A stretch of DNA of 39,113 bases from a virus (IMGVR_UViG_3300010046_000002:1-39113); one strand, 5' to 3'; positions 6,379 through 15,062 are shown, counted from the first letter of the stretch. The notes: generated from the sequence alone by a model not told the origin. Program-made: numbers and translations.

Positions 6379-6573
6379 TCACGTCCAGTACACGAGCTGC
6401 CCGGCCTTGAGTTTGCGCACGATGATGCGCGCCATGACGAGGTCCATCGGGCGGCGGAGCGGGTCGGCATCCGGAGCCGCTTGCCGGGCGCGATCCGCCT
6501 CGACCAAGAGCGTGGCGGCCTCCTCGTCGGGGGCCGCAAGAATCCGGTCAAGCAAATTAGCCGAGCTGGTCAT
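6379..6573 (-). CDS. Hypothetical protein (64 aa)
   Basis: MTSSANLLDRILAAPDEEAATLLVEADRARQ...; the start overlaps the last 17 nt of the terminase ATPase ORF. Confidence 0.45.
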   Translation of the reverse strand: MTSSANLLDRILAAPDEEAATLLVEADRARQAAPDADPLRRPMDLVMARIIVRKLKAGQLVYWT

Positions 6574-7276
6574 GCACGAGGTCCTTAAAAAACCCCGGGC
6601 CGGCGCTCGACACCGCCGTCAACCGCCCGCCGCCCTCGATGGTCGGCCGCAACGCCACCCACGTCTCGAACGCATGATCCCAGAACGCCACCTCGTCGGC
6701 CAAGACCGACGTGAACGTGTGCTGCCGCGCTTGCTCCTCGCCCTCGCCGAGCGCCACGATCTCCGACCCGTTCGGGAAGCGGAGAAAGCCAATCGAGTAC
6801 TCGACCTCGCAGACCGGAAACGTCGCCGGCAAGTGCTCGTGAATGAACTTCGCGCGCCGCACGAGCTCCGCCGACCCCTCCGTCTCCGTTTTCCCTAGTT
6901 TCCGGGCCATGAACGCGACCTTGCTATTCCCGCAAAACCGCGCAAGCCAGTAATTCACCGCCACGAAGAGCCAGGTGACGACCATGCGCCGGGACTTCGC
7001 AACCGCGAGTAACGGTTGCTCCTGCCAGCGCCGCACCAGGAGCTCCGCATAGGCTTGACTCGGGTAGCGCCGCACGCGCCCCGTCACCTCGTCCCGCGTC
7101 CACACGCAATCCCGCACAAACGCCCACGGATCCCCGTCCCGGCCGTAGGTCGCGAGCGTTTTCCGTTGCTCGAGCAGGAGCCGCGCCGCGGCGCGCATGG
7201 CGAGGGGATGGTCGGGCCCCAAGACCCGGCCCGCGCCGGCCCCCGGCTCAGGCATCGGGCCCGTCGGCGGCGTCAC
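6557..7276 (-). CDS. terL-N: Terminase large subunit, ATPase domain only
   Basis: YPSQAYAELLVRRWQEQPLLAVAKSRRMVVTW (deviant Walker A), FTSVLADEVAFW (Walker B), RLTAVSSAGPGFF (C-motif), then ...KDLVHDQLG stop. GTG 7276 overlaps the upstream TGA (GTGA); the alternative start is ATG 7255. Confidence 0.8.
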   Translation of the reverse strand: MTPPTGPMPEPGAGAGRVLGPDHPLAMRAAARLLLEQRKTLATYGRDGDPWAFVRDCVWTRDEVTGRVRRYPSQAYAELLVRRWQEQPLLAVAKSRRMVVTWLFVAVNYWLARFCGNSKVAFMARKLGKTETEGSAELVRRAKFIHEHLPATFPVCEVEYSIGFLRFPNGSEIVALGEGEEQARQHTFTSVLADEVAFWDHAFETWVALRPTIEGGGRLTAVSSAGPGFFKDLVHDQLG

Positions 7277-7689
7277 CACGCATACTCGAGCACGTAGGCA
7301 AACCGCTCGAGGCAGCCCGCCACCGCCGCCCAATCGGCCTCGGAGAGCCGCAGCCCGACCGGCCGCTGGAAGTCGTCGCTATAGCCCGGCCGGAAGAGGA
7401 TCCGCTCGCGCGGGAGCGTCGTTAAGACCGGCAACGCGTCGTCCGGCATGCGCGAGACCGCCTCCAGGCCGACCCGCATGGTGCGCGGCCGCGCGGCGGC
7501 CGTGCTCCGCAGCATCGAGGCCGGATCCTCCGTCACCATGACCGCCGCAGGATAGTCCCCGCCCGCATGGTGCTGCGCAAAGACCGCCAGCCACACCCCG
7601 CCGTCACGGATCGGCCCGCCGCCGCGTGCCCGCCGCGGCCCGGGTGCCCGGCGCCGGGCCGGCCGATCGGCGCCGCGCCGCCGCGTCAT
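7273..7689 (-). CDS. Hypothetical protein (138 aa) between terS and the terL ATPase half
   Basis: MTRRRGADRP...VWLAVFAQHHAGGDYPAAVMVTEDPASML...RLSEADWAAVAGCLERFAYVLEYAW; ATGA overlap with terS and GTGA overlap with terL-N. Confidence 0.5.
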   Translation of the reverse strand: MTRRRGADRPARRRAPGPRRARGGGPIRDGGVWLAVFAQHHAGGDYPAAVMVTEDPASMLRSTAAARPRTMRVGLEAVSRMPDDALPVLTTLPRERILFRPGYSDDFQRPVGLRLSEADWAAVAGCLERFAYVLEYAW

Positions 7690-8366
7690 CGCCCCTCCTC
7701 CGGCCCCGGCAACAGCCCGACCACGCCCGCCAAGCGCTCGGGCCACGCCCCCGTCGCACTGAACGCTTCGAGCTCCTGGTCCGACAACTGCTCGAGCACG
7801 TGCAAGTGGAGATGCGCCTTGCGCTCCACCTTGTCCCCGCTCGTGGTCAACAACAGATCCGCCGCCCGGATCGCATCCGCGTCCCGCTTCGCCCGCCCCC
7901 GGCGCTCCCCGCTCGCCCGATCCTTCACGCCCCCCGCCAGCTCCGCCACATGCTCCATCACCGCCGGCGCCGCCGCCTTCGCCGTCGCCAGCACGCCGTA
8001 CTCGCCCCGCAACACCCGCTCGAGCTGCGCCTCGCGCACCAGCGCCACAATGCGCACCACCGCGGGATGCTTGAGCGCCTTCATCGCCGCGTGCTGCGTC
8101 GTGTACCCGAGCGCCCGCGCAATCGCCGCCGTGTCGTAGCCGCCCAAATGCAGCATTCCGACCGACCAGAGCCGCGCCGGCGTCGAGCGCCGCAACGCCT
8201 CGAGCGTCATGCTTGAACAGCCCTCCAGCCACGCCCGCGCGGCGGCCTTGCGCTCGGCATGCGACCGCTTGGCCGCGGCCTGCAGCACCGCGACCCGCTC
8301 GGCCAACACCTCCGGCGACGGGCCCGGATGCGCCCGCACGCCCGGCCCCGTCCGTCCCGATGGCAT
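7686..8366 (-). CDS. terS: Terminase small subunit-like HTH protein
   Basis: Lies directly upstream of the ATPase half. HTH: MLHLGGYDTAAIARALGYTTQHAAMKALKHPAV; helical C-terminal region. Start is ATG 8366 or 8384. The N-terminal extension in track ORF 7686..8606 looks non-coding. Confidence 0.5.
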   Translation of the reverse strand: MPSGRTGPGVRAHPGPSPEVLAERVAVLQAAAKRSHAERKAAARAWLEGCSSMTLEALRRSTPARLWSVGMLHLGGYDTAAIARALGYTTQHAAMKALKHPAVVRIVALVREAQLERVLRGEYGVLATAKAAAPAVMEHVAELAGGVKDRASGERRGRAKRDADAIRAADLLLTTSGDKVERKAHLHLHVLEQLSDQELEAFSATGAWPERLAGVVGLLPGPEEGR

Positions 8367-8384
8367 CGCGCTCCGGCCTAGCAT

Positions 8385-13457: not shown

Positions 13458-14047
13458 TTCATCGCACCTATTTTTTCGATTCTGTGCGCTATTACCTCGA
13501 TTCTGACCAATCTTTGAGCCAAGATCAGGTCGATGGGCTCAATTCTTTGCTCGATTACTATGAAATGGTCGGAATTGAGGGCTCTGGAGCCTATGAGGAC
13601 CGCTATTTTGCCTATATTTGCGCCACGACGTGGCACGAGACCGCCGCGACGTGTCAACCGATTGCGGAATACGGGAAAGGGGCGGGAAAACCCTATGGGA
13701 AACCCGCCGGGCCCTATGGGCAGGTCTATTATGGCCGCGGCTACGTGCAATTGACCTGGTATGACAACTACGTGGCGCAGGATACGAAACTCGGGCTCAA
13801 TTCCGAGCTCGTCAAAAACCCGGATCTCGCGCTGGACCCCCATATTGCCACCAAGATCCTGTTCGGCGGCATGCGGGACGGCGATTTCACCGGCAAGCGG
13901 CTCTCCGACTACTTCACCGAGACGTTGACGGACTGGTACAATGCGCGTCGCATCGTGAATGCGACCGACCAGGCCTCGCTCATTGCCGGCTATGGAGAAA
14001 AGTTCCTGAATGCCATTGCGCACACATTCCCGCCGCCGCGTGCGTAA
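13454..14047 (+). CDS. Glycoside hydrolase family 19 (chitinase-like) endolysin
   Basis: [19 protein letters not shown]...[15 protein letters not shown]...[14 protein letters not shown]...[21 protein letters not shown] overlap with the collagen-like gene. The 5' third has markedly T/A-ending codons. Confidence 0.8.
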
Positions 14048-14060
14048 GGAGTATACGCCC

Positions 14061-14192
14061 ATGACGACCGAGCGCCGCCCCGAGGACGAGACGCCGCCAC
14101 CCGCGCCCCCCGAGGACGAGGAGGAGACGAAGAAGCTCGAGGATCCGGAGCCCGAGGGACCCCCCGAGGACGAGAAAGCGACGGCGGACTAG
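14061..14192 (+). CDS. Small acidic protein (43 aa)
   Basis: AAGGAG lies 9 nt upstream of ATG 14061; MTTERRPEDETPPPAPPEDEEETKKLEDPEPEGPPEDEKATAD. Confidence 0.4.
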   Translation: MTTERRPEDETPPPAPPEDEEETKKLEDPEPEGPPEDEKATAD

Positions 14193-15062
14193 ATGCCGTT
14201 TCTCGGCGCTCGCGGGGCCGCGCCCGACCCGCGGGGTACCGCCGCACAGCCGATGCCGGGCGTGACGGAGTGGCGCTGCCCGCGCAACGGCGTCCACGTC
14301 GTCGAGGTCCACTACACTGCCGACCCGGCCAAGCGCGACCCGGCGTGGAAGCGCGAAGCCATGCGCGGCATGCCGCCGCGTGGCTGGCAACGCGAGATGG
14401 AAATCGCGTTCGACCTGGCCGGCGGTGAGCCCGTCTTGCCGGAATACGTCCCCGCCGAAATGCGCCGCCCCTTTCCGGTCAATGCCTCCGCACGCCTCTT
14501 GCGGGGCTGGGATTTTGGTCAGGTGTGTCCGGTGACCGTCTTTGCGCAACTCGATGTCCATGGGCGGCTCGGCTTTGTCGCCGAGCTGGTCTTGGAGCAC
14601 GCCAACCTGACCGCGCAAATCGAGGCGACGAAAGCCATGACGATTGAGCTGGTTGGCCCGGGCGCCAACTGCTTTGACGCGGGCGACCCCGAGGCGCTGC
14701 ACGAGATGGAGCTCGGGTCGATTCGTGCGGTCCTCTTGAAGCATGGGATCATCTTGCAGACCTTCGCCCGCTCGAGCGACACGTCCTACAACAACCTCCG
14801 CGACCGCCTCTTGCGCCGCGTGCGCATCCCGGGCGAGGACGTCCCATCGCCGGCGCTCTTGGTCGACCCCCGGTGCCCGATTCTCCACTCGGCGTTCTCG
14901 GGTGGCTTCGCGCGGCATCAGAAGACCGGGAAACCCATGCCGACGCATCCCTACAAGGACGTCGTCGACGCCGCCCGCTACTTGCATGACAACCTGCAGG
15001 GCTCAAGTTCAGACTGGATGCAGAAGCTCCAGCGCATCGCACGGGCGGATTGCGCATGGTGA
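14193..15062 (+). CDS. terL-C: Terminase large subunit, nuclease (RNase H-like) domain only
   Basis: Begins at the inter-domain linker ...GVHVVEVHYTADPAKRDPAWKREAMRGMPPRGWQREMEIAF. Catalytic Asp motifs: LLRGWDFGQ, NCFDAGDPEA, HPYKDVVDAARYLHDN. Confidence 0.85.
   Translation: MPFLGARGAAPDPRGTAAQPMPGVTEWRCPRNGVHVVEVHYTADPAKRDPAWKREAMRGMPPRGWQREMEIAFDLAGGEPVLPEYVPAEMRRPFPVNASARLLRGWDFGQVCPVTVFAQLDVHGRLGFVAELVLEHANLTAQIEATKAMTIELVGPGANCFDAGDPEALHEMELGSIRAVLLKHGIILQTFARSSDTSYNNLRDRLLRRVRIPGEDVPSPALLVDPRCPILHSAFSGGFARHQKTGKPMPTHPYKDVVDAARYLHDNLQGSSSDWMQKLQRIARADCAW

Follow-up and report, generated by a model that had tools for sequence, protein, structure and literature searches.

A large terminase encoded by two separate genes on opposite strands of a circular phage genome

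Organization of the terminase locus

The window analysed here, a stretch of 39,113 nucleotides from a virus, is a closed circle of ~39 kb with a terminal repeat of 123 nt, and it carries a full podovirus-like gene set. Its large terminase (TerL) is two separate proteins, the genes of which lie on opposite strands, ~7 kb (6.9 kb) apart. A preliminary description of the sequence had reported TerL as two half-genes facing opposite ways, and both open reading frames (ORFs) are indeed present; no second TerL was found within the window. The canonical architecture, a single gene whose product combines ATPase and nuclease, is absent, each half having its own start and stop on its own strand. The features of the region are:

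6379..6573, minus strand: 64-aa ORF, overlapping the 3' end of the TerL-N gene by 17 nt and continuing the leftward operon
6557..7276, minus strand: TerL-N gene (239 aa), comprising the ATPase core (RecA-like) and the N-terminal subdomain II helices
7273..7689, minus strand: 138-aa ORF of unknown function, its stop overlapping the TerL-N start (ATGA); no family match
7686..8300, minus strand: candidate small terminase (terS?), so labelled from its position upstream of TerL-N
9383..9467, no strand: divergent intergenic gap between the leftward and rightward operons
14010..14192, plus strand: 60-aa acidic ORF, its TAG stop abutting the TerL-C ATG; absent from related loci
14193..14492, plus strand: first ~100 codons of TerL-C (variable tail, ATPase strand(s), lid/subdomain II helices, hinge)
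14493..15062, plus strand: RNase-H-like nuclease domain of TerL-C, from conserved residues, AF2/Foldseek and alignment to an annotated TerL
15050..15769, plus strand: PAPS reductase, between TerL-C and portal; absent from this place in related loci
15821..18316, plus strand: portal protein, SU10-type by a weak match, following TerL-C in canonical order

The leftward operon includes, in order, the candidate terS, the 138-aa ORF and TerL-N, while the rightward operon runs from the fibre genes through the endolysin, the 60-aa ORF, TerL-C, PAPS reductase and portal to the head genes; no consensus promoter or terminator was found in the gap between them (9383..9467). The fibre, collagen-like, endolysin, PAPS reductase, portal and capsid genes are located where they had previously been placed. 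The earlier identification of 7686-8300 as terS could not be matched to any family: the product is unrecognised by Pfam and PHROG models and does not resemble the genuine Terminase_2 terS that precedes the TerL pair in a relative (L083). Its synteny is kept in relatives, and its sequence is HTH-like in appearance.

Two complementary halves and the break between them

The coding content of c(6557..7276) is limited to the RecA-like core of a terminase ATPase of the T4 gp17 type, and the product ends 14 residues past motif III. It matches PHROG_2 ("terminase large subunit") at 2e-5 and, by tblastn, the N-termini of T4-like TerL proteins, and its family profile finds T4 gp17 in the PDB at 1.2e-12, with an alignment that stops at motif III; the Pfam Terminase_6N model gives the protein 12 bits (E=0.17), short of its cut-off of 22. 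The AF2 model (pLDDT 90.5) superposes on the gp17 ATPase and adopts the ASCE/RecA-like fold of solved TerL ATPase domains, the best Foldseek match being T4 gp17 (3cpe; 3.6e-12, TM 0.67-0.69), followed by the HK97, P74-26 and Sf6 TerLs. The motifs quoted in the preliminary description are the invariant columns of the family: across 25 sequences there is little or no variation in the deviant Walker A of the KSRR type (K94/S95/R96/R97), in Walker B with the catalytic Glu (D194-E195) or in motif III (S223/S224), and these motifs align with those of gp17.

The 289-aa product of 14193..15062 (stop codon at 15060-15062) covers the rest of a TerL after the RecA-like core. Its sequence has no matches in Pfam, PHROG or the PDB; an annotated TerL (MW202637) aligns with it through its own C-terminal portion. 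Its AF2 model (pLDDT 79.7) has the RNase-H/RuvC-like fold of solved TerL nuclease domains and retrieves those of D6E TerL (2.8e-9), SPP1 G2P (1e-6) and G20c (1.8e-6) in Foldseek. The Asp motifs noted earlier hold up, with the acidic metal-binding residues D107 (WDFG), D162/D165 (FDAGDP) and D259 (KDVVDA, together with K255) invariant in 23 sequences; they are probably the equivalents of the gp17 triad D401/E458/D542. The domain also has a C-terminal helix.

This gene had been thought to start exactly at the inter-domain linker, which proves to be incorrect, since its first ~100 residues comprise the last ATPase strand(s) and the lid. After a variable tail at the N-terminus (residues 1-20), TerL-C continues with the strand(s) GVTEW..VHVVEVHYTADP, then with the helices of the lid/subdomain II (W..REMEI) and the hinge, and this lid segment holds 7 of the 18 invariant columns of TerL-C (A43, D44, P45, K47, W52, R67 and E68). 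In gp17, subdomain II is formed by residues 1-58 plus 314-353, and the hinge by 354-364 (PMC3074133). The position of the break is conserved: it falls in a variable loop that follows ATPase motif III. Where the split forms stop and restart in this loop, three fused relatives (L099, L101 and L106) have continuous coding sequence. TerL-N and TerL-C are exactly collinear with the fused relatives, with only ~10 and ~20 variable residues left over at the junction.

Collinearity with fused TerLs, together with conservation, suggests that the two proteins physically associate. The large terminase of the phage would then consist of two polypeptides that are translated separately, TerL-N supplying the nucleotide-binding RecA core and TerL-C the last ATPase strand(s), the C-terminal part of the lid/"transmission" subdomain, the hinge and the RNase-H-like nuclease. 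Because the break interrupts the ATPase domain, at a variable loop on its surface, the chains would have to dock non-covalently, rebuilding a complete ATP-binding cleft, and the docked pair would act at the portal like an ordinary TerL.

Relatives, gene order and alternative explanations

The two-gene terminase is old and conserved. Homologue clusters of the two halves (94 and 98) are all of half-gene size, down to 30-40% identity, and a search of 1.84 billion representatives gave, among its 150 best clusters, 96 that are split-like, 7 split-like with a large insertion and 34 fused. All members of the lineage are uncultured metagenomic sequences. Both halves were found in 25 genomes, separated by between 1 nt and 8.6 kb. 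In distant relatives (metagenome-assembled genomes, MAGs, of many phyla) they are adjacent, translationally coupled ORFs, which use all three frame offsets and ATGA/TAAATG junctions and therefore show no conserved frameshift; intermediate relatives have them on a common strand, separated by 0.7-7.4 kb occupied by other genes. Both halves are under purifying selection (dN/dS 0.07-0.26), and in one relative (L006) amino-acid identity is 99.7% against ~90% at the nucleotide level. Pairwise identities of the halves are closely correlated (r=0.97, Mantel 0/2000), a pattern that two genes simply inherited together in the same genome would also be expected to show. On a rough NJ tree the fused sequences are intermingled with the split ones, so that a single ancient fission is not established; some of the "fused" database proteins could be gene-calling artefacts, and three were checked directly on the DNA.

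Opposite-strand halves occur only in the window's clade (at least 68% identity), where they are fixed in 11 of 11 informative loci, and in relatives at 65% identity or less the halves are co-oriented. The sister lineage (65% identity), with its enzyme already in two genes, carries candidate terS, ATPase, HNH, small ORFs, nuclease and portal on one strand. Within the clade, the DNA between the halves varies from 4.6 to 8.6 kb and also differs in content.

Because the two-gene state is common to a large uncultured phage lineage, we regard this as a genuine two-protein terminase, neither a switch nor an assembly error. A two-subunit enzyme had been one of the possibilities raised at the outset, with the same split fixed in many relatives named as the observation that would speak for it, and this is what the relatives contain. 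In all likelihood, the two chains are obligate partners whose genes were dispersed and then fixed in an opposite-strand layout through an ancient inversion. The ancestor would have had two adjacent, translationally coupled ORFs, between which HNH endonucleases, small ORFs and fibre/lysis genes would later have accumulated; in the window's clade, as the gene order indicates, the module of candidate terS and TerL-N would at some time have inverted and become fixed, leaving the halves in two divergently oriented late operons.

The idea that one inversion would rejoin the halves thus survives as evolutionary history, whereas the flip itself would not restore one gene, yielding instead two abutting ORFs (TAA then ATG). 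It is extremely unlikely that 6557-14192, or a similar segment, inverts today to toggle between packaging-competent and packaging-incompetent arrangements. The flip would be geometrically clean, every ORF remaining intact, and close to the borders there are inverted copies of a 10-nt sequence; this 10-mer, GACGAGGAGG, is real, with 3 copies in the window against 0.12 expected, but it is coding (Asp-Glu-Glu) and offset from both borders, and its right-hand copy sits inside the 60-aa ORF, which is unique to the window genome and has no counterpart in relatives. The inversion is not centred on the 9383-9467 gap, as had been stated, the midpoint of 6557-14192 being ~10375. No border-spanning inverted repeat stood out among 161 GC-rich chance pairs, and no invertase gene was found in the ORFs scanned from 5.8 to 15.8 kb (apart from 8615-8833), the sole recombinase being a tyrosine integrase (1-1221) beside an att-like end rather than a serine invertase. 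The flipped form is seen in 0 of 47 clade loci from ~30 samples, the ATPase gene never being adjacent upstream; the intervening DNA changes in length and content within the clade, and the co-oriented relatives are likewise split, with other genes between their halves. The suspicion of an assembly artefact, or of a rearranged, defective (cryptic) element with a broken terminase, is understandable for a single metagenomic contig whose nuclease half escapes all family models, and yet it is very improbable: this gene arrangement was recovered again from many samples, in assemblies made independently (JGI, ENA and Logan data), both halves evolve at dN/dS well below 1 with invariant catalytic residues, L006 combines near-identical protein with diverged nucleotide sequence, and the genome closes with its gene set complete.

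Restoration of one TerL chain by trans-splicing group I/II intron halves or a split intein is also highly unlikely. Some TerL-C relatives bear intein-sized insertions elsewhere, but Rfam yields no intron matches around either border (at the gathering threshold and also at E<=1), inspection by eye shows no junction motif of the C-intein kind (His-Asn and then Cys/Ser/Thr), and the halves lie on opposite strands with independent starts and stops; exact collinearity with so short a junction leftover leaves no room for intein halves. Somewhat more weight, while still improbable, can be given to half-proteins that work independently, TerL-N (with TerS) as a translocase like phi29 gp16, an ATPase-only packaging motor, and TerL-C as a separately recruited nuclease that cuts concatemers, for example via the portal. 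The genes do sit in different operons at variable distances, and TerL nuclease domains fold and cut alone in vitro (SPP1, G20c structures). Against this, TerL-C carries the last ATPase strand(s) and lid with an invariant HY(T/S)ADP..K..W..RE, purposeless in a stand-alone nuclease, TerL-N by itself would have an incomplete subdomain II, the subdomain that forms the ATP cleft (PMC3074133), and the two genes co-diverge tightly.

Within the preferred reading of two chains that dock into one enzyme, the split may, with a small probability, be functional design rather than tolerated damage: with the ATP cleft complete only when the chains meet, assembly could gate motor and nuclease, TerL-N for example arriving with TerS-DNA (leftward operon) and TerL-C with the portal/procapsid (rightward head operon). 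If so, unlinked genes would allow independent dosage and timing of each chain, and selection for this mode of assembly would account for the way in which fused and split forms repeatedly intermingle within the lineage.

Comparison with known split and interrupted systems

Compared with canonical single-chain TerLs (T4 gp17; D6E, SPP1, G20c and HK97), the halves are collinear and have the same folds and catalytic motifs, apart from the deviant KSRR type of the Walker A. The canonical enzyme is one chain, whereas here the ATP cleft and subdomain II would span two polypeptides. The fused TerLs of the same lineage, from Verrucomicrobia (L099), Anaerolineae (L101) and Elusimicrobia (L106) MAGs, are single ORFs of ~500-580 aa without a break at the loop, and at 25-40% identity share with the split forms the motifs KSR[RQ], SSAxPGFF, HYSADP and WDFG/FDYG.

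Terminases in two adjacent ORFs are already known from the cultured Arthrobacter cluster AY phages (PMC11920828, PMC12820723), which are unrelated and broken at a different site. In these viable, plaque-forming phages (BillyTP, PP978841, genes 2 and 3; BlueShadow), as in the window, the TerL activities come from two genes. The AY genes are translationally coupled, with terS on one side and portal on the other. They are always consecutive and co-oriented, whereas those of the window's lineage are up to 8.6 kb apart and, in the window's clade, on opposite strands. The AY break is at the domain boundary (a 359-aa complete ATPase and a 198-aa nuclease) and that of the window inside the ATPase (239 and 289 aa). 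BLAST and HMM comparisons of BillyTP genes 2 and 3 with either window half gave no similarity, and with no detectable sequence relationship the two fissions are independent; the window pair, being neither consecutive, co-oriented nor AY-homologous, is not of the cluster AY type.

In Jug phages and cyanophage Mic1, the terL coding sequence is likewise in pieces, owing to group I introns or inteins, but these pieces are co-transcribed and rejoined into one chain by RNA or protein splicing, unlike the window halves on their opposite strands with neither intron nor intein. The herpesvirus pUL15 gene consists of two exons flanking opposite-strand genes, so that there, too, terminase ATPase/nuclease coding sequence is parted by kilobases with genes of the other strand; the UL15 exons, however, lie on a common strand, and splicing joins them in a single mRNA for a single protein. 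The "genes in pieces" of T4-like phages (Aeh1 NrdA split by mobE, the split gp43 polymerase and the T4 topoisomerase gp39/gp60) concern different enzymes and are adjacent and co-oriented, unlike the window halves. Homing-endonuclease genes lie at these breaks, comparable with the HNH genes of two relatives (L079 and L112), and in these systems an essential enzyme that is divided within a domain functions through chains held together non-covalently.

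The two half-genes of the large terminase

The window is GC-rich (about 69%) and forms a closed circular assembly, in which bases 1-123 are an exact repeat of 38991-39113 (a 123-nt terminal repeat). Its gene set is that of a temperate podovirus-like phage, with an exonuclease, a RuvC-like resolvase, a replication initiator, tail fibres, a GH19-like endolysin and an internal virion protein bearing an SLT domain, as well as the features listed below. No large-terminase-like ORF is present in the window besides TerL-N and TerL-C, which correspond to the ATPase-core half and the lid/hinge/nuclease half, respectively, of a large terminase (TerL).

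Landmark genes of the window
1-1221, minus strand, tyrosine integrase; the ORF crosses the circle junction
6557-7276, minus strand, TerL-N, 239 aa
14193-15062, plus strand, TerL-C, 289 aa
15821-18316, portal protein, SU10-type
21055-22380, major capsid protein

TerL-N scores under the Pfam Terminase_6N cut-off (12 vs 22 bits), but matches PHROG_2 "terminase large subunit" at 2e-5 and, among 1498 phage records, the N-terminal half of T4-like TerLs at identities of at most 29%. A profile built from 25 members of its family matches T4 gp17 at 1.2e-12, with gp17 residues 104-288 aligned, and its AF2 model (pLDDT 90.5) superposes on gp17 at 3.6e-12 with a TM score of 0.67-0.69. Residues K94-S95-R96-R97 (a deviant Walker A), D194-E195 and S223-S224 are invariant or nearly so in the family. 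TerL-C has no match in Pfam, PHROGs or a PDB sequence-profile search, and almost none of its homologues carries a precomputed Pfam match; it was identified solely through structure comparison and one annotated TerL, MW202637, of which it aligns with residues 242-476 of 486 at 28% identity. The AF2 model of TerL-C (pLDDT 79.7; the two products were modelled separately, as single chains) matches the D6E TerL at 2.8e-9, as well as the SPP1 and G20c nuclease domains, and D107, D162, D165, K255 and D259 are invariant in the family.

Several features of the surrounding genes were also recorded. A tRNA call beside the integrase (38911-38997, minus strand) is made by Rfam at 34.7 bits and not by ARAGORN; this tRNA-like sequence may be a tRNA-like attP core. 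A PAPS reductase gene (15050-15769) lies between TerL-C and the portal gene; since related loci have no counterpart at that place, it seems to have been inserted recently within the packaging module. The candidate small terminase gene upstream of TerL-N (7686-8300, minus strand), so labelled from its position, has no family match and does not resemble the Terminase_2 protein encoded by the related locus L083. Its distance from the ATPase half is about 0.4 kb in the window and about 4 kb in L018, L024, L044 and L052, and the leftward "packaging" operon is itself mosaic. A scan for promoter and terminator consensus sequences gave nothing informative.

Conservation and position of the break

Searches covering 5.8 billion proteins gave 94 TerL-C clusters and 98 TerL-N clusters, every one of half-gene length and with identities spanning 97% to about 25-35%; both halves were located on 85 fetched loci (IMG/VR, JGI/ENA/Logan). 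When 1.84 billion representatives were searched exhaustively with a profile, 270 clusters matched at E<=1e-30. Of the best 150, 96 are split-like (median 293 aa) and 34 are fused (median 528 aa); a further 7 are split-like but contain large insertions, and the rest are 11 fragments and 2 others. Among the closest 150, about 100 clusters, formed at 50% identity, have a split TerL. Between the window and six members of its clade, dN/dS is 0.07-0.21 for TerL-N and 0.07-0.26 for TerL-C, and in L006 an amino-acid identity of 99.7% accompanies a nucleotide identity of about 90%. Pairwise identities of the two halves are correlated across 25 genomes (r=0.97), a value reached by 0 of 2000 Mantel permutations. 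This conservation of the half-gene split in relatives supports the genuine two-polypeptide terminase that the preliminary description had offered as one of three options, and we consider that reading probable. Fused and split forms are intermingled on a rough NJ tree of the nuclease region (P0193-P0340), where 28 state changes are inferred among sequences that include 33 fused members. The topology is judged too poorly resolved to interpret: either fission and fusion have occurred repeatedly, or the mixing comes from poor resolution of the tree.

The second gene had been described as starting in the linker between the two domains, but its start in fact lies earlier, within the ATPase domain. 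The gp17 alignment of TerL-N ends at motif III (TTT285-287 of gp17). In gp17, subdomain II consists of residues 1-58 and 314-353, followed by a hinge at 354-364, and subdomains II and I together form the ATP cleft (PMC3074133). The first ~100 residues of TerL-C, predicted by AF2 to form three short strands and three helices ahead of the first nuclease strand (102-107), can be aligned to the MW202637 TerL over its lid and the strand that follows motif III, and hold 7 of the 18 invariant TerL-C columns (A43, D44, P45, K47, W52, R67, E68). Relatives with a single ORF (L099, 553 aa; L101, 554 aa; L106, 495 aa) are continuous through a variable loop of 20-35 residues, and it is exactly at this loop that the split forms stop (after ..SSAxPGFFxxLV..) and restart (M..G[VM]xxW..HY[ST]ADP). 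From the gp17 and MW202637 alignments, and from the fused relatives that read through the loop, it therefore follows that the two products together make up an entire TerL in collinear order, without loss of any part, and that the cut falls inside the ATPase domain.

Insertions were observed in both families. Some ATPase-half relatives (P0183, P0185, P0189, P0166 and P0172) carry a Cys-rich, zinc-ribbon-like CxxC...CxxC insertion between the conserved "FP" and "YL" (alignment columns ~100-125). Nuclease-half representatives of 484-642 aa (P0240, P0252, P0272, P0291, P0296, P0298, P0338), in most of which the family match breaks in two near the catalytic WDFG strand, probably contain inteins or other large insertions within an already split gene. 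An intein-like insert (CMADGS..., LGLWLGNGS, ...ITHNT) is also seen in the 1063-aa portal ORF (10820-14011) of a distant relative, L085.

Gene arrangement and alternative explanations

In the window clade, defined by TerL-C identity of >=68%, TerL-N is encoded on the opposite strand, 4.6-8.6 kb upstream, in all 11 loci that reach far enough. Relatives at 40-65% identity have both genes on one strand, with TerL-N upstream and 0.7-7.4 kb of other genes between; the order is candidate terS, TerL-N, HNH, three small ORFs, TerL-C, x, portal in L112 (65%), and candidate terS, TerL-N, 1.3 kb, TerL-C, portal in L069. At 25-36% identity, in IMG/VR contigs and in MAGs of Selenomonadales, Chloroflexota, Armatimonadota, Synergistaceae, Bacillota, Verrucomicrobiia, Patescibacteria and others, the reading frames of the halves touch or overlap at ordinary ATGA or TAAATG junctions, which amounts to translational coupling. 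A programmed frameshift joining them is rejected, since frame offsets of 0, 1 and 2 all occur with these ordinary stop/start overlaps. The arrangements document an evolutionary series, from gene fission through the spreading apart of the halves to inversion. The inversion falls between the nodes of L112 (65%) and L001 (68%).

Co-oriented relatives carry a conserved pair of paralogous ORFs (~95-110 aa) just upstream of the nuclease half, which begin "MPATISSSGTWT.." and bear an "..ExxQFIQLVA.." motif, with weak, sub-threshold Pfam matches. Homologues of these small "MPATISSSGTWT" ORFs are absent from the window clade, the lone match, in L076, lying inside a collagen-like fibre gene. HNH genes, one with an AP2 domain, stand directly after the ATPase half and directly before the nuclease half.

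ORFs near the half-genes in related loci
L002, 9331-9660 and 9671-9994, paralogous ORF pair
L072, 9305-9640 and 9650-9973, paralogous ORF pair
L061, L062, L069, L078 and L079, paralogous ORF pair also present
L079, 7406-7873 and 9478-9990, HNH endonuclease genes
L112, 1345-1854, HNH endonuclease gene

The opposite orientation of the halves had raised the possibility that 6557-14192 is an invertible segment acting as a switch, with a 10-mer, GACGAGGAGG, as border homology. The 10-mer is real and over-represented: it or its complement occurs at 6519-6528, 14115-14124 and 19157-19166 (3 copies vs 0.12 expected). It is displaced from the borders, by 29 nt outward at one and by about 70 nt inward at the other, where it falls within a 60-aa ORF absent from all relatives, and at the two sites read, of three, it encodes Asp-Glu-Glu within an acidic stretch; its repetition looks like a matter of codon and peptide bias rather than of a recombination site. 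Inverted repeats found across 5800-15300 are low-complexity GC-rich pairs only, with none at the borders, and the window ORFs scanned include no invertase gene. The flipped form, with TerL-N adjacent upstream, was seen in 0 of 47 clade loci having >=1 kb upstream of TerL-C, and the intervening DNA varies in size and content between clade members. The midpoint of the segment, at about 10375, is not in the divergent gap on which the flip was said to be centred, and a flip would merely abut the two ORFs, TAA directly before ATG, without fusing them. The switch is accordingly rejected. The arrangement recurs in about 30 samples and both halves are under purifying selection, which excludes an assembly artefact or defective copy. 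Rejoining by splicing is likewise excluded: Rfam intron scans are negative at both borders, and the junction has no spare sequence able to form intein halves. Independent action of the two halves is a minor possibility that is hard to square with the conservation of an ATPase-lid segment on TerL-C.

With the start of the second gene, the midpoint and the outcome of a flip corrected, the observation of two terminase half-genes is confirmed. Two complete, conserved genes are separated by a break in a permissive loop and, in the window clade, lie in two divergently oriented gene strings; the large terminase of this phage probably consists of two polypeptides. The native intradomain interface would hold TerL-N and TerL-C together, with a TerL-C strand joining the TerL-N sheet and the lid helices packing on the N-terminal helices of TerL-N, so that docking would rebuild the ATP cleft. 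As with other TerLs, the heterodimer would then oligomerise on the portal. Both operons would be late, TerL-N presumably being made with the candidate TerS, and TerL-C with the portal and head proteins. Insertions of mobile endonucleases may have promoted or stabilised the fission. HNH genes lie at the break in L079 (two copies) and L112, and their products may be homing endonucleases or, just as well, HK97-like packaging cofactors.

Significance and comparison with known systems

Among tailed phages TerL is treated as a universal hallmark, a single-chain enzyme that also serves as a phylogenetic marker. The split lineage is a natural experiment on the packaging motor, of interest both for its mechanism and for terL-based viromics. 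As judged from its genes, it would show that the RecA core, lid and nuclease need not be covalently joined, and its naturally separate chains could be used to analyse how ATP hydrolysis is coupled, through the lid/transmission subdomain, to translocation and cutting. Neither half in the window passes a curated family threshold, and split-terL genomes will appear terL-less or truncated in annotation pipelines, completeness estimates and TerL trees.

Herpesvirus UL15 and the "genes in pieces" of T4-like phages provide analogies; unlike here, the pieces of intron- or intein-interrupted terL are rejoined into one chain. In the full-text literature, largely outside subscription journals, we found no account of a TerL cut inside its ATPase domain, or of TerL halves lying kilobases apart or encoded on opposite strands. 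A two-chain TerL is nevertheless not new in kind, because the cultured Arthrobacter phages of cluster AY encode the ATPase and nuclease domains as two consecutive genes (PMC11920828, PMC12820723), annotated as such in BillyTP (genes 2 and 3). Similarity between the AY proteins and the window family was not found. The AY proteins (359 and 198 aa) are divided at the domain boundary, whereas the window lineage breaks inside the ATPase domain, and the AY genes stay adjacent, whereas the halves in the window clade lie kilobases apart on opposite strands.
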